A DNA stretch of 64,000 nucleotides from the NCBI GenBank assembly GCA_028820655.1, contig JAPPIK010000006.1, forward strand, positions 183,427 through 247,426, given 5' to 3'. Each line of letters starts with the position of its first letter. Within the stretch, counting starts at the first letter, position 1. The notes beneath the pieces were generated by a model, which had not been told where the DNA came from, made no database searches, and saw only the letters and a program-made list of their open reading frames with translations. The stretch comes from Candidatus Poribacteria bacterium (GTDB lineage Bacteria; Poribacteria; WGA-4E; JAJDTR01). This document shows, piece by piece, positions 1,548-64,000 of the stretch. Both the position numbers and the translations under genes were made by a program.

Positions 1548-1567
1548 TGACGGTTTCAACCTTGGTA

Positions 1568-4674: not shown

Positions 4675-4920
4675 ATGAAGACAACCGACTCGATTTTCCC
4701 GCTCCAGAGGATCAAGCGACTGAATAAGGAGCGCGATAGTAAATCCTTGAATGTTGATAGAACTCCCAAAGCAAATCCAAATAAAGAATCGGTAGAGGTT
4801 GAGCATCAAACATGGTTAAATCTGTCGATCCAAGGCTTGGAGGAAGCATACGGGGAAGACGAGCCGGAGTATTCTAGCGACTTTATCGAAAAGGTAAACC
4901 CCCACTATTCGGGGAGGTAG
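4675..4920 (+). CDS. Hypothetical small protein (81 aa), low confidence
   Basis: ORF only; no recognisable motifs. Confidence 0.2.
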   Translation: MKTTDSIFPLQRIKRLNKERDSKSLNVDRTPKANPNKESVEVEHQTWLNLSIQGLEEAYGEDEPEYSSDFIEKVNPHYSGR

Positions 4921-5013
4921 TGTCATATTGACTGCTACTATGACGGAGAACCATCGTGGTAGAAACCTTTTCTCATTCGCTCATCACTCATTTGATGCTT
5001 TAGTGAACTCATT

Positions 5014-6198
5014 ATGGCAGCGCCACAACTTGAAAGCAAATTCATAGAATTGCAGCCGTTCTCGGATGAGATGGTCGTGAACATGGGACCTCAGCATCCG
5101 AGCACACACGGCGTGTTGCGCCTGGAGTTGAAACTTGACGGCGAAGTCGTGCGTGAAGCCATCCCGCATCTCGGCTATCTGCACCGCTGCTTTGAGAAAC
5201 ATTCGGAGAATCTGTCGTATCCGCAGATCATTCCGTTTACGGATCGCATGGACTACATCGCCGCCATGAACCAGAACTGGGGATTCTGCCTGGCCGTGGA
5301 GAAGTTGATGGCGGCGGATGAATCGAAGTCCTTTGAAGTCCCGGAACGCGCCGAGTACCTCCGCGTGCTCATCTGTGAACTGAATCGCATCGCCAGTCAT
5401 CTCTTGGCGTTCGGCACCTACGGTATGGACATCGGCGCCTTTACGCCGTTCCTTTACGCCTTCCGGGATCGCGAAAAGATTCTTCTGATGTTCGAGAAAA
5501 TCTGCGGCGCGCGATTAACCTACAACTATGTGCGTATCGGCGGGGTTTCCAGAGATTTGCCGCCTGATTTCCTTGACGAAGTGAAGGAGTTTATTGACTA
5601 CTTCGAGCCAAAGATTGATGAGTATAACAATCTTCTTTCCGGCAACAGCATTTTCATCGAGCGCACAGCCGGCGTCGCGGTGATGGACCAAGAGATGGCG
5701 ATCAACTACGGCGCGACGGGACCGAACCTTCGTGGCGCCGGAATGCAATGGGATCTGCGTAAGGACGAACCGTATTCCATTTATGATCGATTCGACTTTG
5801 ACATCCCCTACGGCAAAGATATGCCCGAAATCGGCGTGGTCAAGGGCGACTGTTGGAACCGATACAAGGTGCGAATGGATGAGTTGAAAGAATCCGTCAA
5901 GATTGTCCGACAGATACTTGAACTTGAGAGCGGCATTCCCGACGGACCGATTGTGGCGGAGTTCAAAGCCGTTCGCCCGCCGAAGGGTGAAATCTTCTTC
6001 CGGAGCGAGGCGCCGCGCGGCGAGTTGGGATTCTACATCGTGAGCGACGGCACGCCGAAACCGCTTCGTCTCAAGGCGCGGTCGCCGTGCTTTAGTGCGT
6101 TGAGCGCATTGTCGGAGTTGAGCAAAGGATTGATGGTCGCCGATATCATTGCCATTATCGGAAGCATCGATATTGTAATGGGCGAGGTTGACCGCTAA
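5014..6198 (+). CDS. nuoD: NADH-quinone oxidoreductase subunit D (49 kDa subunit)
   Basis: 394 aa. NMGPQHPSTHGVLRL N-terminal motif and C-terminal RxxCxSALS...GSIDIVMGEVDR signature. Confidence 0.92.
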   Translation: MAAPQLESKFIELQPFSDEMVVNMGPQHPSTHGVLRLELKLDGEVVREAIPHLGYLHRCFEKHSENLSYPQIIPFTDRMDYIAAMNQNWGFCLAVEKLMAADESKSFEVPERAEYLRVLICELNRIASHLLAFGTYGMDIGAFTPFLYAFRDREKILLMFEKICGARLTYNYVRIGGVSRDLPPDFLDEVKEFIDYFEPKIDEYNNLLSGNSIFIERTAGVAVMDQEMAINYGATGPNLRGAGMQWDLRKDEPYSIYDRFDFDIPYGKDMPEIGVVKGDCWNRYKVRMDELKESVKIVRQILELESGIPDGPIVAEFKAVRPPKGEIFFRSEAPRGELGFYIVSDGTPKPLRLKARSPCFSALSALSELSKGLMVADIIAIIGSIDIVMGEVDR

Positions 6199-6435
6199 AA
6201 TCCGTAGCGATCGAGGGAGTGGATAACGACCGCGACAGAAATCCCTCACACCACATGTAGGAGGGAATCAAGCGACTGGACAAGGAGTGCGATAGAGATC
6301 TTCTTGCCACGATCGGCTAACGTGCAATCAACCGAGTAGTTAGCCACCGCGATAGAGATCCTAAGGCGATAGAAAATCCTGTAATGAGTACCGTAGAATT
6401 TTGCTGACCACTGATCACTAACCACTGTCTTCAAA

Positions 6436-7701
6436 ATGTTTGACCAGATACAACAAATAATTTCAAATTCTCCACGAGTGTCCTCCGAAGCTACCGGAAA
6501 CTGGGCGGAGGAATTTGCCCGGAATCGGTTGATTCCGATTCTGGAACATCTTCCGTTTGTCCCGGCAGGGGTCGCCGAACACTTTCCCGTTTCGCTGGGT
6601 ACGATTCTCGTGATGTTCGGCGCATGCGGCATTTTTGTCGCAATTGTACCGCTCATTCCCCTGGTGCTGGTGCTGGCGGAGCGCAAGGTGTCTGCCCAGA
6701 TTCAGAACCGGACGGGTCCCATGCGCGTAGGTCCCTGGGGAACGCTTCAAACGCTGGCGGACGGGGTCAAGTTAATCTTTAAGGAGGATTTCATCCCTCC
6801 GCAGGGCGACAAACTACTCTTTGTCTTCGCACCATACATCATCTTCGCGTGTTCATTCGCCGCCTTCGCCGCCATCCCGTTTGGCCAAGGAATTTTAATC
6901 AGTGACTTCAACATCGGCATCTTCTATATTATGGCGATATCCTCGGTTGTCGTCATGGGCGTCATTATGGCGGGGTGGTCGTCCAACAGCAAATGGTCGC
7001 TCTTGGGGGCGCTCCGATCCGCCGCACAAATCGTCAGCTACGAAATTCCGTTGGGGCTCTCCATTCTGGTCGTTGTGATGCTGGTTGAGAGCCTGAGGAT
7101 GCAGGATATCGTCGGCAGTCAATCCGAGGGGCTGTTTAGCTGGCTGATATTCCGCACTCCCTTCACGTTTATCGGCTTTTTCGTCTTCTTTATCTCATCG
7201 ATCGCCGAAGTGAATCGGACGCCGTTTGACCTACCGGAGGCGGAATCGGAGATTGTCGCGGGGTTCCACACCGAATACAGCGGAATGCGGTTCGCGCTCT
7301 TCTTCATCGCCGAATATGCGAACATGTTCGCCGTGAGCGCCATCGCGGCAACGTTGTTCCTCGGCGGTTGGGAGGGCATACTTCCGGGATACGACTTCCT
7401 CGGCGGAATGCCGGGCTTCGTCCTTAAGACACTGTTCTTGGTGTTTGTCATGATGTGGTTGCGGTGGACGCTGCCGCGCCTGCGCGTGGATCAGTTGATG
7501 AACCTCTGCTGGAAATATCTCCTGCCCATCGCATTCTTCAACATTCTGGGAGTGGGGATATGGGGATTGATCTTCCCCAAAGATTCCAGGCTAAGCATAA
7601 TCATCAGCATGGCTATCATCGTTGTCGGGATTATCGTCACCTACGCCGTGGCGGGAAAGAGCCTTTCCAAACGCCCCGAGCCTCAGCCGAGTTCAGCTTA
7701 A
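6436..7701 (+). CDS. nuoH: NADH-quinone oxidoreductase subunit H; N-terminal extent uncertain (true start may be internal)
   Basis: ERKVSAQIQNRTGPMRVGPWGTLQTLADGVK and EYSGMRFALFFIAEYANM motifs. About 80 residues precede the ER motif versus about 35 in typical NuoH. Confidence 0.85.
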   Translation: MFDQIQQIISNSPRVSSEATGNWAEEFARNRLIPILEHLPFVPAGVAEHFPVSLGTILVMFGACGIFVAIVPLIPLVLVLAERKVSAQIQNRTGPMRVGPWGTLQTLADGVKLIFKEDFIPPQGDKLLFVFAPYIIFACSFAAFAAIPFGQGILISDFNIGIFYIMAISSVVVMGVIMAGWSSNSKWSLLGALRSAAQIVSYEIPLGLSILVVVMLVESLRMQDIVGSQSEGLFSWLIFRTPFTFIGFFVFFISSIAEVNRTPFDLPEAESEIVAGFHTEYSGMRFALFFIAEYANMFAVSAIAATLFLGGWEGILPGYDFLGGMPGFVLKTLFLVFVMMWLRWTLPRLRVDQLMNLCWKYLLPIAFFNILGVGIWGLIFPKDSRLSIIISMAIIVVGIIVTYAVAGKSLSKRPEPQPSSA

Positions 7702-7720
7702 CATAGGGAGGGATGGTACG

Positions 7721-8383
7721 ATGAACAAGTATTTCTACAATATCTACAAAGCGCTCTACACGGTGCTCATCGGCATGCGGATCACGTTTAAGCAAATGTT
7801 CCAGCACGCGGTAACACATCAGTATCCCTATCAACGTCCGTTTGAGAAGAAGCGAAACGTGCGTGATATTCCCAAGGGTTATCGGGGGCAACTGTTCAAT
7901 AGGATTGAAGACTGCATCGGCTGCAAGAAGTGCGAGATGATTTGTCCCGTCGACTGCATCGCTATCACCACCCAGAAACTTCCCAAGGGGGAACGGCTTT
8001 GGGATAGCATGAACGTGGTTCATCTCAAGGATCGCTCCGAGGTTGTCGGTTTCGTCGAAGGCGACGAGAAGGTGGTCCCGGACACAACGGTCACCGTCAA
8101 AACTCGTGACGACCAATCCCTTGACATCCCGAGCGGCGACATTGCCCGAATCGTCGAACGCAAACCCGTCATCTTCTATCTCGACAAGTTTGACATTGAT
8201 ATGTCGCTCTGTATGTACTGCGGGCTTTGCACCGAAGTTTGCCCGACGGAGTGCCTGATAATGTTTGATGATATGAAAGGCATCGAGTATTCGACGTTCG
8301 ACCGAATGGAATTGGTATTTCCGTTTGCCAAACCTGAGATGTACCAAAATGAGCCTGCTGCCGAGACGGAAGCGACCGAGTAA
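7721..8383 (+). CDS. nuoI: NADH-quinone oxidoreductase subunit I (2x[4Fe-4S]) with an ~50-aa insertion between the two cluster motifs
   Basis: ATG 7721 preceded by AGGGAGGG. CIGCKKCEMICPVDC and CMYCGLCTEVCPTEC ferredoxin motifs. Confidence 0.9.
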   Translation: MNKYFYNIYKALYTVLIGMRITFKQMFQHAVTHQYPYQRPFEKKRNVRDIPKGYRGQLFNRIEDCIGCKKCEMICPVDCIAITTQKLPKGERLWDSMNVVHLKDRSEVVGFVEGDEKVVPDTTVTVKTRDDQSLDIPSGDIARIVERKPVIFYLDKFDIDMSLCMYCGLCTEVCPTECLIMFDDMKGIEYSTFDRMELVFPFAKPEMYQNEPAAETEATE

Positions 8384-8566
8384 CGGCTACTGTAGGGTGC
8401 GCACCGCGCACGAGCGTTTAAAAGCCCTAGAGAGGATCAAGCGACTCAATAAGTAGCGCGATAGAGATGTCTTATTCTTCAATAATCCGGTTTCTCTAAT
8501 CCTCGTTGCATTGTCTTTTAACATGAACCAACTAGCCACTGACCACTAGCCACTAAACACTGCCTT

Positions 8567-9094
8567 ATGGAATTCGCCGGCATTAAATCCCTGATATTTT
8601 ACGCTTTCGCGTTGCTCACCGTTGCCTCCGCGGTCCTCGTGGTAACTGTGCGGAACATCGTCCACGCCGCCTTTTCACTGATGATTACGCTCTTTGGCGT
8701 TGCGGGGCTTTATGTGTTTCTGCAAGCCGACTTCCTCGCCGCAACCCAAGTCATCGTCTACGTCGGCGGCATTCTGGTACTCATCCTTTTCGGTGTCATG
8801 ATGACGAGCGGGCGCCTCCAAATGAGGATTCAGATTGAACGGGGACAACTAATCCTCGGTGGACTGGTCGCGCTGTTGATTCTGCTCCTTCTGTTCGGCG
8901 TGATTTCAAATACGCCCCATTGGGAAGGAATCAAGGACGACGGGTCAACCTTGGAACCGACCACCCGCACCATCGGCGAGATGATTATGCAAGGTGAATT
9001 CCTGCTGCCGTTTGAGGTTGTCTCAATCCTGCTGTTAGTGGCGCTCATCGGCGCAGCGCTGATTTCTCGCAAGGAGGTGCGAGACGAAGAATGA
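8567..9094 (+). CDS. nuoJ: NADH-quinone oxidoreductase subunit J
   Basis: 175 aa, 5 TM helices, position within cluster. Stop overlaps nuoK start (ATGA). Confidence 0.85.
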   Translation: MEFAGIKSLIFYAFALLTVASAVLVVTVRNIVHAAFSLMITLFGVAGLYVFLQADFLAATQVIVYVGGILVLILFGVMMTSGRLQMRIQIERGQLILGGLVALLILLLLFGVISNTPHWEGIKDDGSTLEPTTRTIGEMIMQGEFLLPFEVVSILLLVALIGAALISRKEVRDEE

Positions 9095-9399
9095 CGCTCC
9101 AGCACTATCTCGTTATCAGCGCGATCCTGTTCACGCTCGGCGTATTTGCCGTATTGACCCGCCGGAACGCAATTAGTATCCTGATGGGGATCGAGTTGAT
9201 TCTTAACTCGTGTAACCTGAACTTCGCGGCGTTCTCCCGCTTTATGACGCCTGCCGAGGACATCAACGGGCAAATCATCGCCATCTTCGGGATTGTGCTT
9301 GCCGCCGCGGAAGCGGCAGTGTTTTTGGCTATTATTTTGGCGATTTACAGGGAGTTTGGCACAATCCAACCCGATCAAACGGATACATTGAAGGGATAA
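9091..9399 (+). CDS. nuoK: NADH-quinone oxidoreductase subunit K
   Basis: 102 aa, 3 TM helices. LGIELILNSCNLNFAAFS and AAAEAAVFLAI motifs. Confidence 0.9.
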   Translation: MTLQHYLVISAILFTLGVFAVLTRRNAISILMGIELILNSCNLNFAAFSRFMTPAEDINGQIIAIFGIVLAAAEAAVFLAIILAIYREFGTIQPDQTDTLKG

Positions 9400-9403
9400 T
9401 AAG

Positions 9404-9817
9404 ATGGGCAGGATTTCGGTTGATCTCAAGCTGACAAATAGTCAAGATATGCTCCGTGCGGAAGATGGCATATTGCCTCCTGATCAGATTCGTCAGACAA
9501 CAGCGCGCGGTGTGGTTGACACCGGTGCAACGCGATTGGTAATACCTGCTGCAGTGGCTGAGCAGTTGGGACTGCCTGAGACTGGCGAAGTGGGAGTTCG
9601 TTATGCCGACGGACGGACGGGAACACGCAAGGTTGTCGAAAATGTTCGAGTGGCACTCCTAGACCGTGAATTCACGTTTCGTGCCATCGTTGAGCCGGAC
9701 CGAGACACGGCGCTTATCGGCGCGATTGTTCTTGAAGAACTTGATTTTGTCGTGGATTGCGTCGCCCAGAGGTTATATCCACGAGATCCGAATCGTATCA
9801 TCGCGGAGATTGAGTAA
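9404..9817 (+). CDS. Retropepsin-like (clan AA) aspartic protease, single-domain
   Basis: 137 aa. VVDTGATRLVIP catalytic D-T-G-A motif. Inserted between nuoK and nuoL with 4- and 12-bp gaps. Confidence 0.75.
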   Translation: MGRISVDLKLTNSQDMLRAEDGILPPDQIRQTTARGVVDTGATRLVIPAAVAEQLGLPETGEVGVRYADGRTGTRKVVENVRVALLDREFTFRAIVEPDRDTALIGAIVLEELDFVVDCVAQRLYPRDPNRIIAEIE

Positions 9818-9829
9818 GGAAAGGGTGGT

Positions 9830-12052
9830 ATGGTCGTACCTTTAATCAGCATAATTCTGCTTTGTCCGCTCGCGGCGTTCGCGTTCTTCGGACTGCTGTC
9901 ACTGACCGGTCGAAACTATTCGCGTCAAGACCTCGTCTCGACCGCGGCGATGCTAATCGCAGCAATCTGCTCCTTCCTCCTACTGCCGCAGATTACTTCC
10001 CACCCGGAGCCCATCTCGATTACGTGGATCGAAATCGACCAAATCAAACTGTCGATGGGATTCTATTTTGACAGCGTAACAGCGATGATGCTGCTCGTCG
10101 TCACGATTGTCAGTAGCCTCGTTCATATCTTTTCCATCGGCTACATGCACGGCGACCCCCGCTACCCTCGATTCTTTGCCTTCCTCTCGTTGTTCTCCTT
10201 TTCGATGTTGTTCCTCGTCGTCTCCGACAACCTGTTAGGCATCTATATCGGGTGGGAGCTTGTCGGGTTGTGTTCCTATCTGCTCATCGGGTTCTGGTTC
10301 GAGAAGGACTCCGCCGCAGACGCTTGCAAGAAGGCGTTCCTGACTACTCGTGTGGGCGATGTGGGGATGTTCGTGGGCATGATGATGTTATTCACGAAGT
10401 TCCATACGTTCGCGCTTTACGGCGACGGCGGCATCTTCGCGGCGGTCGCAAATTTGGGATCCGGTGACATCGTTTGGTTGTCCATTGCGGGTGTTCTTAT
10501 CTTCTGCGGGGCTATCGGCAAGTCGGCTCAGGTTCCGCTTCACACCTGGTTGCCCGATGCCATGGAAGGTCCCACACCCGTCAGCGCGCTCATACATGCA
10601 GCCACGATGGTGGCAGCCGGTGTCTACTTGACCGCGCGAATGTTTCCCATCCTGACGCCCGATTCCTCTCTGACGATAGCCTACGTCGGGGGTATCACAG
10701 CTATTGTAGCCGCTACAATCGCCATCGTCAGGTTTGACATCAAGCGGGTGCTCGCCTACTCGACCATCAGTCAACTGGGTTTCATGATGCTGGGTATCGG
10801 TGCCGGGAGCTACGTTGCGGGTCTCTTCCATCTCACCACGCATGCCTTTTTCAAAGCGTTGCTGTTCCTTGGATCGGGCAGCGTCATTCATGCGTTGGCG
10901 GTTCACAACGGCTCGCACGGCGACGACCACGGCCATGAACCGGAGCATCATGACGGCGAACACGGTGAAGCTGAACACCACGACGATACGGGGTTTGACA
11001 GCCACGGCATCCCGGAAGAGCAGGATATGCGCCACATGGGCGGACTACGCCGCAAGATGCCCATCACCTTCCTCACGATGCTGATTGCCACCCTGTCGAT
11101 TTCGGGCGTGCCGTTCGTGTTCTCCGGGTTCTGGAGCAAAGACGCCATCCTGGCGGGCGTTCTGGATCGGGCGATGGCATGGGATTCGGTGCATTACTAC
11201 ATTCTTTTCATAATCGCGCTCGGCGCCGCCGGCATCACCGCCTTCTATATGTTCCGTCTCATCTTCATGACCTTCTTCGGGGAACCGCGCAACAAAGAGA
11301 TGTACGACCACGCGCACGAGTCGCCGGGCGTCATGGCAGTTCCGCTGATCATTCTGGCAGTCCTCAGTTTTCCCATCGTGAACACCTGGTCTTTCAACCC
11401 GTGGTCTTTCAAAAAACATGTGAATGCGCCAATACAACCCCACGTGCACGCTCCCGCGCATGCTAACGAAGAGCGTCCGGTGCTATACGCGATGGCAGGC
11501 GCCTCCGACGCGCACGCTGCCGAAGACGCTGGCCACGGCGCTCATGACGCCGCGCACGCCGAAGACGACCACCATGCTCACCACAGCCCCGCCCACACGA
11601 TTGCAATGGTTCTCTCCATCATTGTTGCCAGTTTCGGCATTTTGCTATCCTATCTATTCTATCATCGCAAAGTATTCTCTGCCGAAGGTGCGGCGTCGCG
11701 TTTGCGTCCGCTTTACAAACTCTGCTGGGGCAAGTATTTCTTCGATGAATTTTATGACGGCGTAATCGTGGCGTTATCCGTCGCTTGGGCAGGGTCTCTC
11801 AGAGTTTTTGACTTGCGCGTGATTGACGGCATCGTGAATCTGGTGGGGTTTGTCACACGAGCGGTGGTCGCCGCGTTCACGGGTTGGTTTGATAACAAAT
11901 TTGTTGATGGGCTGGTAAATTGGGTCGCGCAGATTACGTGGTCGGTCGGTGGGAGGATTCGACGGATTCAAACCGGCGCCATCCAGAATTATCTGCTGAT
12001 CGTTTTGGGCGGTGTCGTGTTGTTGATTCTGATTTTCCGGCGATTTTTATAG
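9830..12052 (+). CDS. nuoL: NADH-quinone oxidoreductase subunit L with two His/Asp/Glu-rich insertions
   Basis: 740 aa. WLPDAMEGPTPVSALIHAATMV antiporter-like motif. Inserts HNGSHGDDHGHEPEHHDGEHGEAEHHDD and HVHAPAHANEE...HGAHDAAHAEDDHHAHHSPAH. Confidence 0.9.
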   Translation: MVVPLISIILLCPLAAFAFFGLLSLTGRNYSRQDLVSTAAMLIAAICSFLLLPQITSHPEPISITWIEIDQIKLSMGFYFDSVTAMMLLVVTIVSSLVHIFSIGYMHGDPRYPRFFAFLSLFSFSMLFLVVSDNLLGIYIGWELVGLCSYLLIGFWFEKDSAADACKKAFLTTRVGDVGMFVGMMMLFTKFHTFALYGDGGIFAAVANLGSGDIVWLSIAGVLIFCGAIGKSAQVPLHTWLPDAMEGPTPVSALIHAATMVAAGVYLTARMFPILTPDSSLTIAYVGGITAIVAATIAIVRFDIKRVLAYSTISQLGFMMLGIGAGSYVAGLFHLTTHAFFKALLFLGSGSVIHALAVHNGSHGDDHGHEPEHHDGEHGEAEHHDDTGFDSHGIPEEQDMRHMGGLRRKMPITFLTMLIATLSISGVPFVFSGFWSKDAILAGVLDRAMAWDSVHYYILFIIALGAAGITAFYMFRLIFMTFFGEPRNKEMYDHAHESPGVMAVPLIILAVLSFPIVNTWSFNPWSFKKHVNAPIQPHVHAPAHANEERPVLYAMAGASDAHAAEDAGHGAHDAAHAEDDHHAHHSPAHTIAMVLSIIVASFGILLSYLFYHRKVFSAEGAASRLRPLYKLCWGKYFFDEFYDGVIVALSVAWAGSLRVFDLRVIDGIVNLVGFVTRAVVAAFTGWFDNKFVDGLVNWVAQITWSVGGRIRRIQTGAIQNYLLIVLGGVVLLILIFRRFL

Positions 12053-12284
12053 TGGGATGTAGGCGGAGGAAGTTCTATAGAGCTTAGGTATTTTGAATTC
12101 TGGCAACCAAAAAACGGATAATTCCGTGCTCGGTCTGGATTGATAAATCCAGACCCGGCGTTGGACTTCACAATCGGACAGAAGGAAAGCATTGTACCGG
12201 TCAGAATTAATTAAGATAAATTTGATTTAACAGGAGCGCCTGTTTCGATTCTTTGTAGTGATGTAATGGGGAGGAATTTATTAG

Positions 12285-13796
12285 ATGCTATTAACGTTAA
12301 TGATTTTTGTTCCGCTGATAGGAATGATTGTTGTGCTATGCCTACCGCGGAACGCAGAGGAAACTATTAAACGCACGACGCTTGTCTTCACGCTTATTCC
12401 GCTCATACTGGGAGTGATGCTGCTTGCGGGATATGACCGGGAGAGCGAAGATCTTCAGTACGAGGTTAACGTAATGTGGATTGACGCGTTCAAAATCCAC
12501 TACCACATCGGAATCGACGGACTGAGCGTGACGCTGATACTCTTGACCGTGCTGCTCGGACCAATATGCGTGATAGCATCGTGGCGGAATATCGAGAAGG
12601 GCATCAAAGCCTATATGGGGTTGTTCCTGTTGCTGGAAACGGGTATGGTCGGTTTCTTCGCAGCGCTCGACCTTTTCCTCTTCTACGTCTTCTTCGAGCT
12701 AACCCTGTTGCCGATGTACTTCCTTATCGGCATCTGGGGCGGTCCTCGACGCGAATATGCAGCCATTAAATTCTTCCTGTACACCCTCTTTGGCAGTGTG
12801 TTGATGCTGATAGCGATGATCGCCGTGTATCTCAAAGGCGGCACATTCGACATTCCGACACTGATTACATTGGCTCAACAGGACGGTCACGCACTCGCCA
12901 ATCCGGTATTCCAGATTTGGGTGTTCCTCGGTTTCTTTATCGGGTTCGCCGTCAAAGTCCCGATTTTCCCCTTCCACACGTGGCTTCCCGACGCGCACGT
13001 AGAAGCGCCGACAGCCATCAGTGTTATTCTTGCGGCTATCCTACTGAAGATGGGAACTTATGGGCTTATTCGAGTTAATTTCGCCATGCTGCCGGAAGGT
13101 ATGGCTTTCTTTACGGACCCGGAAGCTGCAGTGAAGCTGGGGCGATCTGCCACTTGGGGATACGGGCTGGCTATCCTCGGATTTATCAATATTGTCTACG
13201 GATCATTCTGCGCGCTGGCGCAAACCGATTTCAAGAAACTCGTCGCCTACTCCAGTATCGGGCACATGGGGTTCGTCATATTGGGGCTTGCCGCGCGCAA
13301 CGAGAGCGGTGTGACGGGCGCTATTCTGCAGATGTTCAACCACGGCGTGATTAGCGCGATGTTGTTCCTACTCGTCGGTGTGGTCTACGACCGAGCACAT
13401 CACCGCGAAATCAACGGCTTCGGCGGGCTTGGAACCAAGATGCCAATCTACACCGGCATCACCACCTTGGCATTCATGGCATCGCTCGGGCTGCCGGGGC
13501 TTAGCGGATTCGTCGGAGAGGCGCTCGCTCTGCTGGGGGCGTACAGTAAGTATCAGGTGCTGACCATCCTTTCGACAATTGGCATCGTCGTCGGCGCCGC
13601 CTATTTCCTCTGGACGCTGCAGCGCGTGTTTCTCGGAAAGTTGAATCCGAAGTATGAGGGCATCTCCGAAATCAATGGGCGCGAAATCCTGACGCTCGTA
13701 CCGCTCGGTATTCTTACCATTGTTTTTGGAGTTTATCCGTCTCTTCTCATTAACATGTTCAATCAAGCGGTAAGCATGTTGCCGCTCGTGCCGTAA
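12285..13796 (+). CDS. nuoM: NADH-quinone oxidoreductase subunit M
   Basis: 503 aa. FPFHTWLPDAHVEAPT motif, position in cluster, RBS GGGGAGG. Confidence 0.9.
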   Translation: MLLTLMIFVPLIGMIVVLCLPRNAEETIKRTTLVFTLIPLILGVMLLAGYDRESEDLQYEVNVMWIDAFKIHYHIGIDGLSVTLILLTVLLGPICVIASWRNIEKGIKAYMGLFLLLETGMVGFFAALDLFLFYVFFELTLLPMYFLIGIWGGPRREYAAIKFFLYTLFGSVLMLIAMIAVYLKGGTFDIPTLITLAQQDGHALANPVFQIWVFLGFFIGFAVKVPIFPFHTWLPDAHVEAPTAISVILAAILLKMGTYGLIRVNFAMLPEGMAFFTDPEAAVKLGRSATWGYGLAILGFINIVYGSFCALAQTDFKKLVAYSSIGHMGFVILGLAARNESGVTGAILQMFNHGVISAMLFLLVGVVYDRAHHREINGFGGLGTKMPIYTGITTLAFMASLGLPGLSGFVGEALALLGAYSKYQVLTILSTIGIVVGAAYFLWTLQRVFLGKLNPKYEGISEINGREILTLVPLGILTIVFGVYPSLLINMFNQAVSMLPLVP

Positions 13797-13809
13797 CTGG
13801 GAGACTGAC

Positions 13810-15279
13810 GTGACGTCGTTGACAAACATCCAAAGCATTCCCTACTTTATTCCCGAACTGATTCTCGTCGTATTTGCGGTGGGCGCCATCCTGTTGGATT
13901 TGGTGAACAGGGGTAGGAACACCGAGCGGGTCGCTTATCTTGCGCTTGTCGGCGTGGCGGCAACGCTGATTGCGGTCATCGCTGTCGGATCATCGGAAAA
14001 ATCGCTGTTCCTCGGTATGATCCGGCTCGACAGTTTCGCGGTATTTTTCAAAATCATCATCTTGGTCGCCACGGCGGTCACGGTGATCTTCTCCATCAAA
14101 TCCGAAGAGCTTGACCCGCGAATGAAGGGGGAATACTACGCCCTCCTGATTGCCGTGACATTCGGCATGTTCCTCATGGTATCGTCGAAAAATCTGTTGA
14201 TGATTTTCATTTCGCTCGAAACCGTGAGCCTGACCTCCTACATCTTGGCGGGATTCTTGACGCACAACCCGCGCTCGAGTGAAGCGGCGTTCAAGTACAT
14301 CACCTATGGGGCGGTCGCATCGGGAACAATGCTGTTCGGATTTTCACTTCTGTTTGGGTTGACGGGCACCGGGGATGTGGTACAGATTAGCCACCGACTG
14401 ACCGAGATGTTCAGCGCGGGCGAAGCCTATCCGCTCGTCGTATTGGTGATCATCACCTTTATCCTGGCGGGCATCGGCTACAAGATGGCTTCGGTGCCGT
14501 TCCACATGTGGTCGCCCGATGTGTACGAAGGCGCACCTATCCCCATCACCGCGTTCCTGTCGGTGGCGTCGAAAGCCGCCGGGTTCGCGCTGTTCATTCG
14601 ACTGTTCTATTCGACATTCCAGGCTTCCAATATTGTTGGTTCTGTCGATTGGTCGCTTATGCTGTCGATTGTCTCCGCGCTGACGATGACGTTGGGCAAT
14701 CTAGCCGCGCTGCCGCAACAAAACGTCAAGAGGCTGCTTGCGTATTCGAGCATAGCGCACGGCGGCTACCTGCTCATGGGGGCAACCTTGCTGACGCCCG
14801 AGGGAATTCAAGCCATTCTCTTCTACTTCATAACCTACCTGTTCATGAACTTGGGGGCATTCTTTGTGGTGGTGTTGATTGCGAACGAGCTGGGGAGCGA
14901 AACCATTGACGGCTATCGGAATCTCTGGTCCCGCGCGCCGTTCGTTGCGGTGTCAATGGCAATCTTTCTCTTCTCGCTGACGGGCATCCCACCCTTGGCT
15001 GGGTTTTTCGGTAAATGGTGGCTCTTTATGGCGGTCATTAAACAGGAACTCTACTGGCTGGCAGTTGTCGGCTTGCTGAATTCTGTTGTTTCGCTTTACT
15101 ATTATGCGCGAATCGTGAAGGCGATGTTTCTGGAATCATCCGATGAGACGGATGCAATCTCCTTTTCGTGGGGCAATCTTGCGCTGCTGGTTGTGTTCGT
15201 TGTGCCGACGATCATCATCGGTTTCTGGAATACCGTTTATGAGGTGTCGAGGGCTTCGCTGGGGAGGATTGTTGGTTAG
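13810..15279 (+). CDS. nuoN: NADH-quinone oxidoreductase subunit N (GTG start)
   Basis: 489 aa. VPFHMWSPDVYEGAPIPITAF motif. Last gene of the cluster. Confidence 0.88.
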   Translation: MTSLTNIQSIPYFIPELILVVFAVGAILLDLVNRGRNTERVAYLALVGVAATLIAVIAVGSSEKSLFLGMIRLDSFAVFFKIIILVATAVTVIFSIKSEELDPRMKGEYYALLIAVTFGMFLMVSSKNLLMIFISLETVSLTSYILAGFLTHNPRSSEAAFKYITYGAVASGTMLFGFSLLFGLTGTGDVVQISHRLTEMFSAGEAYPLVVLVIITFILAGIGYKMASVPFHMWSPDVYEGAPIPITAFLSVASKAAGFALFIRLFYSTFQASNIVGSVDWSLMLSIVSALTMTLGNLAALPQQNVKRLLAYSSIAHGGYLLMGATLLTPEGIQAILFYFITYLFMNLGAFFVVVLIANELGSETIDGYRNLWSRAPFVAVSMAIFLFSLTGIPPLAGFFGKWWLFMAVIKQELYWLAVVGLLNSVVSLYYYARIVKAMFLESSDETDAISFSWGNLALLVVFVVPTIIIGFWNTVYEVSRASLGRIVG

Positions 15280-37604: not shown

Positions 37605-37634
37605 TTGCAGAACTGTGTTTTAATGTGCTAAAAT
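37605..37634 (+). promoter_or_regulatory. Candidate sigma-70 promoter (TTGCAG - 18 bp - TGcTAAAAT extended -10) for the DUF3179/rSAM operon
   Basis: Sequence match to -35/-10 consensus about 90 bp upstream of the ATG at 37726. Confidence 0.35.
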
Positions 37635-37725
37635 GCTGTGGACATCGGGATGTGTACATTCCGGAGAAGGCTCCGTGTCGCACGCAGTATTGAAATCCGA
37701 AAGGAATGGTACCCGCACCTGTAAA

Positions 37726-38784
37726 ATGGATAAGAATATCACCCTTTTATCGACCACAATCCTGTTGCTGCTGCTCAAATGCCTACCGTGGGCGGGCACA
37801 ACCCGTGCCGCAGAGGCAGGTTATTCGCGAGATGTCATTAAGACACTGCTGCCTTTCGATGCAATTCCCGCGATCACGAACCCGCAGTTTGTGTCAGCGC
37901 ACGAAGCGCAATTGGGCGGCGATGCTCCCGTTATCGGAGTGACTTTCAACGGGGAGCAGCACGTTTACTCGATCTATCTCTTGAACGGGCACGAAATCGT
38001 GAACGATGTTGTCGGCGGAATGAAGATTGCGACCACATGGTGACCGTTGTGCAACTCGGCTATCGTGTATAGCCGCGAGCTTGACGGGAAAACCTACACC
38101 TTCGGCGTTTCCGGCAAACTGTGGCGCGATGCGCTTGTCATGTACGATCATCAGACTCGCACGCTGTGGTCTCACATCACGGGCGAAGCTATCCGGGGAA
38201 AACTCGAAGGGAAGAGGCTAAAGATGCTGGCGGGGATGCCCAAAATCGACTGGCGAACGTGGCGCTTGAATTTCCCGGGGACGAAGGTACTTTCCGTGCC
38301 GGTCGGCGCTTTCGATAACTCCTTCTCGATCGAGGAGCAGAGGCGCGACAGCTACGCGCAATATCACGCCGGTCCGGAAACGGGAGTTAGCGGTATGCAC
38401 TACTCCGATACCCGTCTAAACAACAAAGAACTGGTAGTTGGCGTGAAACACGGAGATCGGCACCGTGCTTACCCGACTTCGGAATTTCAACCGAAGCCGA
38501 TCGTCCATGACGCCATCGACAATGTTCCGATCCTCGTGTTTCACGATCAAAACTCGGGCGCCACCGCCGTGTACAAACGAACGCCAGATGGATTGACGTT
38601 GGTGTTCGAATGGTGCAAAGGTTATTTTGCCGTAGACAGCGCGGGAACAACTTGGAACCTTATCACGGGCCTCGCGACGCAGGGGAAATACAAAGGGACA
38701 CGGCTGGAACGGCTGCCTTCAATCAACCTCTACTGGTTCGCATGGGCGCGTTACTACCCCGATACGTCGATTTATGGTCGATGA
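37726..38784 (+). CDS. DUF3179-family secreted protein with in-frame TGA (38041-38043) at the first Cys of the conserved C-P-L-C motif; predicted selenoprotein (U-P-L-C)
   Basis: ORFs 37633-38043 and 38047-38784 are in the same frame across one TGA. HEIVNDVVGG...TTW-[TGA]-PLCNSAIVY matches the DUF3179 HEIVND...TYCPLC core. Hairpin cggctat-cgtgt-atagccg sits 13 nt downstream of the TGA. Signal peptide from ATG 37726. Confidence 0.65.
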
Positions 38785-38804: not shown

Positions 38805-39779
38805 ATGCAGGAAGCAGAACCGATGAATCCATTTGAGAAGGAAATTGCGCGTTACAACGGACACGGACTCGGCGCCTTAGACATCGATACGATCCAGGTC
38901 AATATCGGTCTAAGGTGTAACTTGGAGTGCGCCCATTGCCACGTCGTGTCCTCTCCGCGCCGGAAGGAGACTATGGGCTGGACCACGATGGAACATGTGA
39001 TATCGGCTGCGGAAGAGGTGTGCGCCAAGCTCGTCGACATCACCGGAGGCGCCCCGGAAATGCATCCTCATTTCCGGCGATTTGTCTCCGCACTGCACGA
39101 AAAACGACTGCCCGTGATGGTGAGGACGAACCTGACGATCCTGCTGGAAAGCGGATTTGAGACGATGCCGGAGTTCTTCCGCGAACATCAAGTTGAACTT
39201 TGCGCCTCCTTGCCCTGCTACTTGGAGGAGAATGTGGATTCACAGCGCGGTACAGGAGTTTACGAAAAAAGCATCCAAGCACTTAGAGTTCTAAACGAGC
39301 GCGGATACGGGATTGAACCCGGCCTGCCGTTGAATCTAGTTTATAACCCGGTTGACGCCGCTCTCCCGCCGAATGCATTAGAACTTGAAGCGGATTACAA
39401 GCATGAGCTACGGGAACGTTTCGGAATCGAATTTTCCAGTCTGCTGACTATCACAAACATGCCGATCGGTCAATTTCGGCGCGACTTGAAACGGGAAAAT
39501 AAACTCGAAGATTACAACCGGCTGCTTCAAGCGTCGTTTAATCCCGCGACGCTGGATGGCTTGATGTGCCGTCATCAGATTCATGTCGGCTGGGATGGCC
39601 GGCTCTACGATTGCGATTTCAACTACGCGCTCAAACTACCGGTAGGTGACGCGTATCCCCAATATATCAAGGATTTCAATCCCCACCTGCTTCTGAATCG
39701 CAAGATTCAGACGGGATTCCACTGCTTCGGATGCACGGCGGGTAGCGGGTCGTCCTGCGGCGGTGCACTGGTTGAATAA
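38805..39779 (+). CDS. Radical SAM protein of the ArsS-like family (Cys-rich C-terminal CxxCxAGxGSSCxG)
   Basis: CNLECAHCH CX3CX2C radical-SAM motif near the N-terminus. C-terminal GFHCFGCTAGSGSSCGGALVE. Starts 21 bp after the DUF3179 gene. Confidence 0.75.
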   Translation: MQEAEPMNPFEKEIARYNGHGLGALDIDTIQVNIGLRCNLECAHCHVVSSPRRKETMGWTTMEHVISAAEEVCAKLVDITGGAPEMHPHFRRFVSALHEKRLPVMVRTNLTILLESGFETMPEFFREHQVELCASLPCYLEENVDSQRGTGVYEKSIQALRVLNERGYGIEPGLPLNLVYNPVDAALPPNALELEADYKHELRERFGIEFSSLLTITNMPIGQFRRDLKRENKLEDYNRLLQASFNPATLDGLMCRHQIHVGWDGRLYDCDFNYALKLPVGDAYPQYIKDFNPHLLLNRKIQTGFHCFGCTAGSGSSCGGALVE

Positions 39780-53997: not shown

Positions 53998-54891
53998 TTA
54001 GACGAAGAACGGGTTTGACCATGCCTTCTTGCCTTCTTCGTCGACGATCTCCACGCGGACGTATTTCGCCGCACTCGGCACCGGGTATTCCGCCTCGGTC
54101 AAGCTTTCGCCTTCCGGAGCAACGATACGCCGCCCGATGCTGCATTGCGCTTTGAATATGATGGACTGGGCGGGGGAACATTTGACGGTGACCTTCTGAT
54201 CGCGAGCAGAATCGCCTACCAGATCGAGATCGACAATCTCCGGACCAAGCGTCGAATAGAAGGAGCCGGTGCGGAAGGCATCCATAATCGCATCGATTGT
54301 GAGTTCGGGGGCTTTCACCATGACCCAGGCGTGGAAGCAATCGTGTTCGGTGCCGTGCGCATCGTCGGCGGCAATACCGTAGACGGGGCCAATCCGATCT
54401 AGGACATCGTCCCATGCCTGTTCTGAGAACCCTTTGCCGATGCCTTGCATGCAGGTGTCGTTGTAGACTTCGACGGCAAAGTAACCATCAAGCTGTTCGT
54501 AGTCTCGGATGGTGTGTCCGCACCAGTACGGGTGGCAAAGCACCGCTTCTCCGCCTTGCGCTTTGATGTCGGCGATAACGTCGTTGGGATGAAGTTCGGC
54601 GCAGTTGATGCGTTCACGCAGGTTGATGCCCACGATGTGATACGTTGAGCCTCCGTACGGGTTGTCGGGATGAACTTCGCTGCCGGAAATAGCGAGGAAG
54701 TTCTCTCGGCTGTGGGATGACACGTCGTTGACTTTTCGGTGATCGGTGAGCACGAGGAAGTTGTATCCGGCTTCGCGGTAGGCGGCGAAGCGTTCGTCCA
54801 TCGGAATCCTGCCGTCGGATTCGGTGCTGTGACTGTGAGTGTTCCCTCGATACCATTGTCCGGGTTGTTTGAACGGGTTTAGATTCTCCAC
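53998..54891 (-). CDS. PHP-domain metal-dependent phosphoesterase
   Basis: WYRGNTHSHSTESDG (H-x-H), LTDHRK, HPYW and DDAHG motifs of the PHP family. Confidence 0.75.
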   Translation of the reverse strand: MENLNPFKQPGQWYRGNTHSHSTESDGRIPMDERFAAYREAGYNFLVLTDHRKVNDVSSHSRENFLAISGSEVHPDNPYGGSTYHIVGINLRERINCAELHPNDVIADIKAQGGEAVLCHPYWCGHTIRDYEQLDGYFAVEVYNDTCMQGIGKGFSEQAWDDVLDRIGPVYGIAADDAHGTEHDCFHAWVMVKAPELTIDAIMDAFRTGSFYSTLGPEIVDLDLVGDSARDQKVTVKCSPAQSIIFKAQCSIGRRIVAPEGESLTEAEYPVPSAAKYVRVEIVDEEGKKAWSNPFFV

Positions 54892-55184
54892 AGGGCGCCT
54901 CCTTGTTTGTGATGTAAATTCAATCCTAGCATACTAGGCAGGAAATTGGAAGGGGAAAAGAGAGGCAGTGGCCAGTGACGGTGGCCGTAAAAGGCAACGG
55001 TCGGGGAAGCAGTACACGAGGGGACGGGTCGGGGCAAAGGGAGCTATATCGCGCTCGCTATTCGCTTCCTTGATCACTCACTATCCGTTCGCTTGATTCC
55101 CTCCTACGTCTTGGTGGAAGGGAGTTCAATTAGGGTTACGGCATACGGCGTATGCCTACTACAGAGGTAGCATAGGATTTTGAT

Positions 55185-55214
55185 TTTGACAGGTTTGCGG
55201 GGGCGTGATATAAT
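55185..55214 (+). promoter_or_regulatory. Near-consensus sigma-70 promoter (TTGACA - 18 bp - TATAAT) upstream of the rhodanese-E1 gene
   Basis: Exact -35 and -10 hexamers. Lies 100 bp upstream of ATG 55313 and just after the gggttacggcatacggcgtatgcctacta element. Confidence 0.55.
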
Positions 55215-55312
55215 TGGAAATGGTTGGGTGGGCTGCGAAACGCGGCGTGCCGGGAGGGATGTTCAGGGGTTGTCTCGGATTGTGCCGCATGTTTTTGAGG
55301 GGAGTGAATTTT

Positions 55313-56512
55313 ATGAGGTCGTCTGCAGAGATTATTGAAGAGGTGAGACAGGAGATTCCGGAGGTTTCGGTTGACGAGGTGAAAGCGGAACAGGACCGGG
55401 GCGAGGATTTTGTGCTGCTCGATGTTCGCGACGATGACGAGCGCCGGGCGGGGTATATCCCGGGCGCGGTTCATGTGTCGCGGGGGATGCTTGAGCTTTC
55501 GATTGACGATTATGTAACTGACGCGGATCAGAAGATTATTCTTTACTGCGCGGGCGGAGTGCGTTCTCTGCTCGCCGCGAAGTCGCTGAAGGATATGGGT
55601 TACACGGACACGATCTCGATGGCGGGCGGATACAGGAGTTGGTTGACGGCGGGCTATCCCACGGAACAGGATAAGCCGATGACGCATGAGCAGTTGGACC
55701 GGTATAGCCGCCATTTCATGCTGCGTCAAATCGGGGAGGCGGGGCAGGCAAAGTTGCTGGAGTCGAAGGTGCTGCTTCTGGGCGCCGGGGGTCTGGGTTC
55801 GCCCGCGGCGGTGTATTTGGCGGCGGCGGGGGTCGGGACGCTCGGTGTGCTGGACTCCGATCTGGTCGAAATCAGTAATTTGCAGCGGCAGATCGCGCAT
55901 CGCACGGAGGCGATCGGCACGCCGAAGGTGCAATCGGCGACGACGACCATCAAGTCGTTGAACCCGGATGTCAAGGTGGTACCGCATCAGACGCGGTTGA
56001 AGGCGGAGAATGTGCTTGAGGTTTTTGAGGGGTATGACTTAATCGTTGACGGCTGCGACAATTTCCCGACGCGCTATCTTGTGAACGATGCCGCGGTGCT
56101 GACGAACAAGACGATTGTGCATGGCAGTATCTCGGAGTTCGAGGGGCAGGTGACGGTGCTCAAGCCTTATGACGGTCCGTGCTATCGCTGCTTGTATCCA
56201 GCACCGCCGCCTCCGGGGATGGTGCCGAGCTGAAGCGAGGCGGGTGTCCTGGGCGTGCTCCCGGGCGTGGTTGGAGTCATGATGGCAACGGAAGCAATTA
56301 AAATATTGGTGGGGATCGGCAGTCCGCTCATCGGTCGGTTGGTGCTGTATGATGCGTTGCGCATGCAGTTTCGCGAGTTGAAGTTGAGCCGGGATACGAG
56401 TTGCCCGGTTTGCGGGGATAAGCCGGAGGTGACGGGGTTGTTTGAGGATTATGACGCATGGTATGATGATTATTGGGTGAATGCGCCGGCGGGTCAAGAG
56501 GCTGCGGATTGA
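55313..56512 (+). CDS. Rhodanese-E1 (MoeB/ThiF/MoeZ-like adenylyltransferase) fusion with in-frame TGA (56231-56233) at the conserved E1 active-site Cys; predicted selenoprotein
   Basis: ATG 55313 with GAGGGGAG RBS. N-terminal rhodanese (YCAGGVRS C-x4-R loop). E1 domain LGAGGLGS Rossmann. Zn motifs CYRC and CPVC. ...CYRCLYPAPPPPGMVPS-[TGA]-SEAGVLGVLPGVVG aligns with MoeB ...TCVEAGV.... Downstream ORF 56255-56512 is in the same frame. Hairpin cctggg-cgtgct-cccggg sits 14 nt after the TGA. Confidence 0.65.
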
Positions 56513-56746
56513 GGTGTGCCCCGGAGGTTTAAAGGCAGTGGCCTGTGTTCAGTGGCTAGTGACCAGTAAAGGCGGGGAGTTGGGTTTCGCTAGAGTTGCG
56601 GTGTTTTCGAGTTACCTGAACCATCAAGAGATTTTATTGACGCGAGTTCTTTTGGAGTTCCGCTCAACCCAACCTACGGGCTGAAATTGCCCCTAAAAGG
56701 CACTAAAACATGGGTTTGAGTTCCAAAGTAGCAAAATGGTGAACCA

Positions 56747-56947
56747 ATGAAGAATGAAAAAGGTGAAAAGGATAAAGAAAAGCAGCCTAAACTTTTGTTT
56801 GAGAACATGAGTCAATCTTCCGGTTATGTGGATGAAGATTCCGATTTATACAATGACCCCGATATTGTTGCGAGTTTGAATCGGGCAAGAAAGCAGATGG
56901 AAAACGACGAGTGCATTCCCAGTAATAGAGTATTCAAGGATGTTTGA
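56747..56947 (+). CDS. Type II antitoxin (small acidic protein upstream of and overlapping the RelE/ParE toxin)
   Basis: 66 aa. Overlaps toxin start by 8 nt (ATGTTTGA). Confidence 0.5.
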   Translation: MKNEKGEKDKEKQPKLLFENMSQSSGYVDEDSDLYNDPDIVASLNRARKQMENDECIPSNRVFKDV

Positions 56948-57197
56948 CTCACAATTTACCAAAGATGCTCATGAGTATTTTAGAGATAAGTTGGATAATA
57001 ATATGAAAAATCGAGTCAAAACCGCTGTGTCACATATAGAAAATAACCCATACCGAGGTCCCAATATTAGGAAACTTGTAAACCGGGAAAACGAATACAG
57101 ATATAGAGTCGGCGATTATAGAATGGTATATCATGTCGACAAAACCAAACGAATGTGTACAATTTTAAGTATACTTCCACGGGGGCAGGTGTATTAA
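56940..57197 (+). CDS. RelE/ParE-superfamily type II toxin
   Basis: 85 aa. ...YRYRVGDYRMVYHVDKTKRMCTILSILPR matches RelE/ParE core (YRxRVGDYRxxY...V..I..R). Confidence 0.7.
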   Translation: MFDSQFTKDAHEYFRDKLDNNMKNRVKTAVSHIENNPYRGPNIRKLVNRENEYRYRVGDYRMVYHVDKTKRMCTILSILPRGQVY

Positions 57198-57564: not shown

Positions 57565-57810
57565 ATGTTACCTTGCCCGGATTGTAATAATCCTTTGACG
57601 CAGTTTCCGGTTGAGCCGTCGGATGTGGATTTGATGAGTTGCGACAGTTGTCAGGTTGTGGTTCTTAACCGCGCGGGTCAGGATCTTGAACGGGTTGATG
57701 ATACGTCGTTCGGTGACTTGGTTGAAGCGTATGGCACGGAGTTTCCGATCGATGTCGATCCGAGTACGGTGACGCTGCCGGAGGAGGTCGAGGAGGCGCT
57801 CGAGGAGTAG
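57565..57810 (+). CDS. Small zinc-ribbon protein (CPDC...CDSC) with acidic tail
   Basis: Two CxxC pairs 23 residues apart. 81 aa. Confidence 0.4.
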   Translation: MLPCPDCNNPLTQFPVEPSDVDLMSCDSCQVVVLNRAGQDLERVDDTSFGDLVEAYGTEFPIDVDPSTVTLPEEVEEALEE

Positions 57811-63206: not shown

Positions 63207-64000
63207 ATGACGAAGAAAAAGATTCGTTTAACGAAGACAGTGGAGTGCGCGGGGTGAGCGTCCAAGCTGGATCCGGGTGATCTGGCACAGGTATTGGACG
63301 GTTTGCCCGCCATGGATGATCCGAATCTGCTGGTGGGTACGGAGACATCGGATGACGCCGGCGTGTACCAGCTTAGCGACGAACTCGCCATCATAAACAC
63401 CACGGATTATTTTACGCCGATTGTCGACGATCCGTATGACTATGGCGCCATCGCCGCTACGAACTCGCTGAGCGATGTGTACAGCATGGGCGGCGTCCCC
63501 AAGACGGCGTTGAACATCACGTGTTGGCCCAAGAACCAACTCGATCTGGGCATCCTGCGCGATGTGCTGCGGGGCGGCGCCGATAAGGTGAAACAGGCGA
63601 ATGCGGTGAGTCTCGGCGGGCATACGGTGACCTCCCAAGAGTTGATGTACGGGCTTGCGGTGACGGGCGTGGTTCACCCGGATCGGATTGTCAGGAATTT
63701 CGGTGCGAAACCGGGCGATGCGTTGATTCTCACGAAACGACTCGGAGTCGGCATCCTCACGACGGGATTGAAGTTCAACAAGATCAGTGAATCTGTGCTT
63801 CCGGAGATTTTGGAGTCGATGGCGCGGCTTAACGCCTCGGCGTCGGAGGTGATGCAGAGGCACAATCCCCATGCCTGCACGGACATCACGGGGTTCGGTC
63901 TGCTCGGGCACGGCTTTGAGATGGCGCAGGGGAACGGTGTCCGGCTGGAGTTTTTTGCCGGGGAGATTCCGGTATTTGACGGCGCGACACAGTTGGTCAA
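63207..64000 (+). CDS. selD: Selenophosphate synthetase SelD (partial, continues past window end) with in-frame TGA (63255-63257) at the Cys17-equivalent position
   Basis: MTKKKIRLTKTVECAG-[TGA]-ASKLDPGDLAQVL aligns with E. coli SHGAGCGCKISPKVL. Downstream NLLVGTETSDDAGVY, ATNSLSDVYSMGG, DITGFGLLGH as in SelD. Hairpin gctggatc-cgggt-gatctggc begins 8 nt after the TGA. Confidence 0.8.

Follow-up and report, generated by a model that had tools for sequence, protein, structure and literature searches.

A stretch of 64,000 nucleotides from the genome of a sponge symbiont, Candidatus Poribacteria (contig JAPPIK010000006.1, hereafter the window) contains a gene in which a rhodanese domain is followed, in the same polypeptide, by an adenylation domain of the MoeB/ThiF type, and in which a single TGA, at codon 307, takes the place of a conserved cysteine. 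We report here the evidence for and against the reading of this codon as selenocysteine (Sec); the coordinates of all features, within the gene and around it, are collected in Table 1. Translation confirmed that the TGA is the only stop in a frame of 399 codons, Sec307 included, the rest of which is open. As the gene's own terminator is itself a TGA, UGA is not globally reassigned, and its recoding at codon 307 would depend on context. The predicted peptide around this residue reads …GMVPS-U-SEAGVLGVLPGVVGVMMATEAIK.

Profile searches against Pfam and NCBIfam, for which a Cys was put in place of Sec307 in the query, recognized both domains, separated by a short linker of about 10-20 residues. 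The Rossmann motif, both zinc CxxC pairs and the rhodanese active-site loop, noticed in a first-pass annotation made from the letters of the sequence, are all intact. They are also well conserved: the four zinc cysteines are invariant wherever a homologue covers their column, and, in the rhodanese loop, Cys79 is kept in 115 and Arg84 in all of 121 homologues. Upstream of the gene lies a putative promoter of the sigma-70 type, rightly described as a textbook one, with a perfect match to the consensus; an exact TTGACA-N16-18-TATAAT arrangement is present at 54 out of 68 orthologous loci of Poribacteria, while the letters of the spacer differ between loci.

The position of the TGA was established by comparison with proteins of known structure. 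In phmmer searches against PDB sequences, three cysteines fall in the column of codon 307: Cys184 in ThiF from E. coli, the conserved one in MoeB from the same species (chain index 186; Cys187 in publications) and the crossover-loop one in Uba4 from C. thermophilum (chain index 200; Cys202 in publications). Of the best 120 protein matches, 88 are full length and all 88 feature a Cys at this column; the other 32 end at residue 306. The TGA thus replaces the catalytic cysteine of the E1-like domain, as originally proposed.

ThiF and MoeB of E. coli (PDB 1ZUD/1ZFN and 1JW9) are the best matches among solved structures (E=4e-57 and 2e-55, respectively), and have in common with the window protein the Rossmann motif, both zinc pairs of the CxxC type and a crossover loop whose Cys184 or Cys187 corresponds to Sec307; they lack, however, a rhodanese domain, and sulfur is brought to them by separate proteins. 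Uba4, MOCS3 and MoeZ(R) resemble the window protein in joining an E1-like adenylation domain and a rhodanese domain in one polypeptide, and the Sec307 column is that of the thioester-forming cysteine of Uba4 (Cys202 in C. thermophilum, Cys225 in yeast). In these proteins, however, the order of the domains is reversed and a Cys is found instead of Sec; the window protein scores 386.1 against the MoeZ model NF005902, below its cut-off of 647. The N-terminal location of the rhodanese domain, regarded as unusual in the first-pass annotation, turned out to be a common arrangement, namely that of the NCBIfam family NF006444 (PRK08762, "MoeB"), to which the window protein aligns over nearly its full length (residues 5-382 to profile positions 4-381 of 387), with all motifs present and a score of 537.8 bits, well above the cut-off of 449. 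Hundreds of Cys-form homologues feature the same order, the close ones, 57-62% identical, being found in Nitrospinota, Binatia, Tectomicrobia and Deltaproteobacteria. What sets the window protein apart from the database members of NF006444, which carry a Cys at position 307, is the predicted Sec, together with a structure resembling a Sec insertion sequence (SECIS) in the downstream RNA.

The in-frame TGA is not a peculiarity of one genome. With tblastn, 80 loci, aligned over residues 1-393/399, were obtained from species-representative genomes, and every locus with a readable motif has a TGA at codon 307. Complete Poribacteria chromosomes with the orthologue include OZ242354.1 (96% identity), OZ240209.1 and OY764073.1. 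As many as 81 distinct TGA orthologues could be assembled, contributed by about 75 Poribacteria species, by Tectomicrobia and Entotheonella, 61% identical to the window protein, and by one member of the Nitrospinota; the nearest ones, up to 96% identical, come from metagenome-assembled genomes (MAGs) of Candidatus Poribacteria. In the comparison of Sec and Cys orthologues suggested in the first-pass annotation, the TGA keeps the same position in all 81 sequences, and Cys forms with an N-terminal rhodanese domain do exist. After the TGA, the frame stays open for 88-94 more codons in these orthologues, with no extra stops or frameshifts; identity to the window protein is 71.5% after the TGA vs 74.4% before it, and the second zinc CxxC, located downstream, is invariant. 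The TGA is also identical across three independent assemblies of the same population.

A short segment is particularly informative in this respect. Codons 309-311 (Glu-Ala-Gly) sit between the TGA and the earliest possible restart codon, GTG315, and differ among orthologues only synonymously, being GAG or GAA, GCA, GCT, GCG or GCC, and GGT, GGA or GGC, respectively. Variation limited to synonymous changes is the mark of purifying selection and indicates that these codons are translated; selection acting past the TGA excludes a pseudogene and strongly disfavours a split gene with re-initiation.

Starting 14 nt past the TGA, the RNA may fold into a hairpin with a 6 bp stem, which belongs to the minimum free energy fold and whose base may be extended by a further G56246-C56266 pair, leaving U56247 bulged. 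As in bacterial SECIS-like elements, the stem lies just past the UGA and a guanosine is found in a small apical loop. The hairpin had already been noticed at this distance, and described as SECIS-like, in the first-pass annotation; two comparative analyses now back this description. Synonymous entropy, normalized and computed in 7-codon windows over the aligned codons of 78 distinct Poribacteria genes, reaches the lowest value of the whole gene (0.117; median 0.776, mean 0.75) at codons 311-318, which coincide with the hairpin; none of 20000 permutations gave a value as low. The structure is moreover specific for TGA forms: among 70 loci encoding the peptide GVLGVLPG, collected from metagenomes with Cys-form homologues as seeds, a hairpin with 6 out of 6 pairs is found in 10 out of 10 TGA forms, but in only 1 out of 60 TGC or TGT forms (Fisher p=2.8e-11), most of the latter making only 2-4 of the 6 pairs.

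Within the genome set, 68 out of 71 distinct TGA flanks are paired at 6 out of 6 positions, and two further flanks reach the same figure when shifted by 1 nt. The shifted register, with an AGUUUUG loop, is the one found in Tectomicrobia and Entotheonella, while the Nitrospinota TGA form features an 8 bp stem closed by a GUCC loop; the dinucleotide GU is found in the loops of all these groups, Poribacteria included. Overall, 95.4% of the cells in the hairpin alignment are paired, vs 69-71% after displacing the partner by one column, a comparison for which the shuffle control was uninformative. The same hairpin is found with the TGA in proteins that are 52-61% identical, and whichever the order of the two domains.

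The gene is not isolated in its use of TGA. A selD gene, located 6.7 kb downstream, is itself interrupted by a TGA (63255-63257), at a position equivalent to Cys17 (C-A-G-U-A-S-K), as anticipated in the first-pass annotation. A DUF3179 gene carries an in-frame TGA within a UxxC motif, followed, about 13 nt past the TGA, by the hairpin GGCUAUC-GUGU-AUAGCC; DUF3179 is among the listed selenoprotein families (PMC13188914), and Poribacteria are among the phyla reported to possess Sec-type group 4 hydrogenases (PMC13582414). The presence of in-frame TGAs at Cys positions in both selD and the DUF3179 gene supports the view that this genome uses Sec.

No characterized example of a Sec-containing E1 with this architecture had been known to the authors of the first-pass annotation. 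Selenoproteins of this kind have, however, long been in the literature. A "Molybdopterin biosynthesis MoeB protein" was described as a new selenoprotein family, on the basis of 11 sequences from the Sargasso Sea, by Zhang, Fomenko & Gladyshev in 2005 (PMC1088965); it was found again in 2008 in the GOS data, with 19 sequences (PMC2398784), and is included in reviews of 2022 and 2026 (PMC9312934, PMC13188914), with MBT7809913.1 as a representative. In the Sargasso sequences reported in the supplement of PMC1088965, the Sec falls in the same column as Sec307 (…PPPAALVPSuAVAGVLGVLPGVVG…), and BLASTP agrees with this alignment. The Sec stands in the context …PPP..LVPS-U-(A/S)(V/E)AGVLGVLPG…; in the window protein and in the Sargasso sequences alike, the first CxxC precedes the Sec and the second follows it, and the E1 domains are 52% identical. 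The DNA after the UGA features essentially the same hairpin (GUCCUGGGCGUGCUCCCGGG; GTCCTGGGCGTGCTCCCGGG and variants).

The main difference concerns the order of the domains. In the Sargasso protein, ThiF (residues 2-160) precedes Rhodanese (201-291), an arrangement of the MoeZ type, whereas the rhodanese domain is N-terminal in the window protein; furthermore, the Sargasso sequences are marine planktonic fragments, while the window contains a complete Poribacteria gene. The published papers define the MoeB family by COG0476/PF00899, with domain order not stated among the criteria. The window gene is a new member of this family and not a new kind of selenoprotein: both Sec at this MoeB residue and the N-terminal rhodanese architecture had already been catalogued. 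What is new is the occurrence of Sec within the PRK08762 architecture, nearly universal in Poribacteria and found also in Entotheonella, Tectomicrobia, Nitrospinota and soil metagenomes, a combination not encountered in the searched literature. A crude neighbour-joining tree built on the E1 domain contains a split with all of the 32 TGA forms, one of them from the Sargasso Sea, on one side, along with only 4 Cys forms; this tree, which is not a rigorous phylogeny, suggests a single origin of the module formed by Sec and SECIS.

One Cys form deserves separate mention. In the soil metagenome contig Ga0081455_10000378, codon 307 is a TGC, and the downstream codons, GTGTTGGGAGTTTTGCCCGGG, nearly match the hairpin of the Sec forms of Entotheonella and Tectomicrobia: this gene may represent a recent reversion from Sec to Cys.

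The possible role of Sec307 can be discussed by analogy with ThiF, MoeB, MoeZ/MOCS3 and Uba4. In Uba4, the equivalent cysteine forms, after adenylation, a thioester with the C-terminal glycine of the carrier (Termathe & Leidel 2018, PMC6007339); the thioester is needed for transfer to the rhodanese persulfide and for formation of the carrier thiocarboxylate (PMC6007339; Pabis et al. 2020, PMC7527816), and guards against off-pathway conjugation in oxidative stress (PMC7527816). The ThiF cysteine, according to the account of Xi et al. 2001 given in PMC6007339, forms instead an acyl-disulfide with ThiS. In a reaction cycle modelled on these enzymes, the E1 domain would adenylate the C-terminal glycine of a sulfur carrier of the MoaD/ThiS type, Sec307 would attack the adenylate to give an acyl-selenoester, comparable to the thioester at Cys202/Cys225 of Uba4, and the persulfide carried by rhodanese Cys79 would then attack the latter, releasing the carrier thiocarboxylate; as an alternative to this last step, Sec307 might resolve an acyl-disulfide. 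In either case Sec307 would most likely play the part of nucleophile and leaving group, coupled to the Cys79 persulfide. Since Sec surpasses Cys both as a nucleophile and as a leaving group, its presence would speed up these steps or shield them from oxidation. The pathway served would be that of molybdopterin, judging from the family name, which for the NF006444 members of this clade is derived from annotation; thiamin, cysteine or thio-tRNA are possible as well.

On the whole, we regard it as very probable that the window gene is a genuine selenoprotein gene, encoding a MoeB homologue of the PRK08762 type, in which UGA 307 is recoded to Sec by the hairpin located downstream, and we infer that Sec is actually inserted at residue 307. 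A number of observations weigh against this interpretation, or against parts of it. In the searched literature, 75Se-labelling or mass-spectrometry data were found for no MoeB selenoprotein. Neither RNAalifold nor pair counting revealed compensatory double substitutions in the hairpin, where only single, wobble-compatible changes occur, and in terms of folding energy the hairpin gains nothing over shuffled, G+C-rich sequence (z=+1.3 to +1.7). The stretch being rich in G+C, folding thermodynamics alone are uninformative; as covariation is uninformative too, the case for a SECIS rests on the synonymous constraint and on the contrast between TGA and Cys forms. Searches against Rfam detected no SECIS, riboswitch or tRNA-Sec, either in the whole window at gathering thresholds, or in the region 55150-56600 at E≤10, where the lone match, Xist_exon1 (E=2.2), was discarded as noise. 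Similarly, ARAGORN and Pfam searches of the window and of the adjoining 10 kb, together about 74 kb out of a genome of about 6.5 Mb, did not detect selA, selB or tRNA-Sec. No MoaD/ThiS-like carrier gene, and no moaD, moaE or thiS, is located in the window, and the gene neighbourhood is not conserved outside Poribacteria, in either the Cys-form or the Sec-form relatives examined. Finally, stand-alone MoeB/MoaD is reported to work without a thioester (PMC6007339), so that the selenoester step is to be taken as an analogy to Uba4, not as one demonstrated for bacterial enzymes.

Three other explanations of the TGA were weighed against Sec insertion, two of which, in the form of a pseudogene or sequencing error and of a split gene, had been raised in the first-pass annotation itself and were not borne out. 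Taken alone, one in-frame stop in one metagenomic scaffold does look like a nonsense mutation, or a sequencing or assembly error. The recurrence of the same TGA in independent assemblies and in so many orthologues, the downstream part being conserved like the upstream one and free of further lesions, and the conservation of the promoter make the probability of this explanation practically negligible; an error shared systematically by both short-read and long-read assemblies is not plausible. A split gene would consist of a 306-residue rhodanese/Rossmann protein and of a polypeptide of about 80 residues, restarted at GTG315 or later, the conserved nucleotides serving for re-initiation. This is indeed how gene callers see the locus, proposing a 306-residue product and a downstream open reading frame (ORF) of 76-87 residues matching ThiF; public records name the former "ThiF family adenylyltransferase" (e.g. 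MDE0683062.1) or "molybdopterin/thiamine biosynthesis adenylyltransferase", the same product ending at the TGA is recorded on the ENA scaffold ROBB21-1_SAMN13943214_METAG-scaffold_18, and GTG315, the first possible start past the TGA, is invariant. Codons 308-314, preceding GTG315, however, behave as translated ones, their amino acids being kept and their third positions free to vary, the break always falls at the very codon which is a Cys in full-length homologues, and the hairpin follows the TGA through deep divergence and through both domain orders; splitting would, in addition, remove the catalytic residue and sever the crossover loop. We consider a split gene highly improbable. The UGA might also be decoded, with the help of the SECIS, as Cys, by a SelC*-type tRNA(ReC) acting with SelB, or be read through by some other tRNA, the product being an ordinary MoeB of the Cys type. 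A tRNA(ReC) inserting Cys at SECIS-dependent UGAs has been described, and sought in MAGs, including those of Poribacteria (PMC13582414), and tRNA-Sec is missing from the portion of the genome searched. ARAGORN found no tRNA of any kind in the window or in the 10 kb longer sequence of the same scaffold. On the other side, evidence for tRNA(ReC) in this genome is lacking; the SelD encoded in the window is itself of the TGA form, and is required only where selenium is used, while the pattern of Sec/Cys pairs is the classical one and, along with the published selenoprotein family, fits Sec. Decoding as Cys appears, in conclusion, decidedly unlikely.

A different question is whether the enzyme might handle selenium rather than sulfur, as the first-pass annotation had suggested in proposing selenium/sulfur-carrier chemistry. 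Rhodanese domains act in selenium transfer in enzymes of the SelU type, and selD is not far away. The Sec-containing E1 and the rhodanese domain might charge a carrier with selenium, in the form of a selenocarboxylate destined for a selenium-containing cofactor or nucleoside. Yet selD is not adjacent and shares no operon with the gene, seven ORFs lying in between; in known selenoenzymes, an encoded Sec takes part in catalysis and does not donate selenium; orthologues with a Cys, endowed with all the other motifs, are far commoner; and no conserved link to selenium genes is seen in other lineages. We give this proposal very little credence. A related view, in which the fusion would be more than a faster MoeB, is also very unlikely: selenium mobilized by SelD and the rhodanese domain would end up, in selenocarboxylate form, on a carrier of the ubiquitin fold, or would be handed on through an acyl-selenosulfide at Sec307. 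If true, sponge symbionts would possess a pathway based on a selenium carrier protein. In a more modest form of this view, the enzyme would be the first natural E1-like one acting through an acyl-selenoester, and would show that bacterial rhodanese-fused MoeB proteins use a covalent E1~carrier intermediate, like Uba4. A catalytic role of Sec is a simpler interpretation than selenium-carrier chemistry.

The other features of the window are reported in Table 1. Conservation of the gene neighbourhood is limited to close Poribacteria relatives, where S20, PhyH, the CehA/McbA-type PHP hydrolase, the 81-residue zinc-ribbon protein and ABC permeases are kept. The 81-residue protein matches no family. 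Just downstream of the MoeB gene, the antitoxin/ParE pair is missing from four 91% identical relatives (L003-L006) and looks like a recent insertion. A search for small ORFs ending in GG, as candidate carriers, gave a single match, an antisense ORF judged to be spurious. In a Binatia locus (L088, 5099-9255), a Cys-form gene lies between two ferredoxin genes, along with genes for a pyridine-nucleotide-disulfide oxidoreductase and for a 98-residue Ub-Mut7C/ThiS-like protein; this arrangement may be a clue to the carrier in that lineage. In the 10 kb past the window, selD is followed by genes for a phosphoribosyltransferase, YmdB, exonuclease VII, DXS and others.

Table 1. Features of the rhodanese–MoeB gene and of the rest of the window, with positions counted from the first nucleotide of the window
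Feature	Position	Strand	Basis and remarks
Coding sequence of the predicted rhodanese–MoeB/ThiF selenoprotein	55313..56512	+	399 codons including Sec307; translation
Start ATG; stop TGA	55313; 56510-56512	+	Read from sequence
Putative sigma-70-type promoter: TTGACA 55186-55191, 17-nt spacer, TG-extended TATAAT 55209-55214	55186..55214	+	12/12 consensus match
Putative Shine-Dalgarno-like GGGAG, 8 nt before ATG	55300..55304	+	Read from sequence
N-terminal rhodanese domain, residues 19-112	55367..55648	+	Pfam PF00581, E=1e-18
Rhodanese active-site loop C79-A-G-G-V-R84	55547-55564	+	Translation
ThiF/MoeB adenylation (E1-like) domain, residues 131-366	55703..56410	+	Pfam PF00899, E=4.8e-84, profile 1-238 of 238
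Rossmann nucleotide-binding motif GAGGLG (GxGxxG), residues 157-162	55781-55798	+	
First zinc CxxC, residues 290-293	56180-56191	+	
UGA codon 307, predicted to be read as Sec in place of the crossover-loop Cys	56231..56233	+	Column mapping to ThiF/MoeB/Uba4
SECIS-like hairpin: 5' arm CCUGGG 56248-56253, loop CGUGCU 56254-56259, 3' arm CCCGGG 56260-56265	56246..56266	+	
Second zinc CxxC, residues 364-367	56402-56413	+	
CehA/McbA-family PHP metallohydrolase, divergent	53998-54891	-	NF038032, 100 bits; syntenic with the MoeB gene in close relatives
66-aa antitoxin-like ORF overlapping 85-aa ParE-toxin ORF	56747-57197	+	PF05016 (ParE); just downstream of the MoeB gene
81-aa zinc-ribbon-like protein, two CxxC pairs, acidic tail	57565-57810	+	4497-4742 in L003-L006
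selD, itself containing a TGA	~63207-64000	+	TIGR00476, 335.7 bits; past the window end, continues in L174 (same scaffold, 10 kb longer) to 14069
DUF3179 gene, in-frame TGA 38041-38043 in W-U-P-L-C (UxxC) motif	37633-38784	+	PF11376
Radical-SAM/DUF3641 gene, next after the DUF3179 gene	38805-39779		
Complex I (nuo) cluster	529-15279	+	Interrupted by two protease ORFs
603-aa trypsin-like protease with cohesin, dockerin and FlgD-Ig domains, inside nuo cluster	2626-4437		
Retropepsin-like aspartyl-protease ORF, inside nuo cluster	9404-9817		

Reading UGA 307 as Sec has consequences for both annotation and enzymology. The present mis-annotation spans about 75 Poribacteria species, in addition to Entotheonella, Tectomicrobia, Nitrospinota and soil metagenome contigs; re-annotation restores a complete enzyme, and the selenoprotein inventories of sponge symbionts gain one member. 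For MoeB-type enzymes, it is a matter of continuing debate whether the crossover-loop Cys has a rate-relevant role. That selection put Sec at this residue in both domain orders argues that the residue performs rate-relevant chemistry in the activation of bacterial sulfur carriers. Sec and Cys forms of the family provide, in this regard, a natural pair for testing the thioester and acyl-disulfide models.

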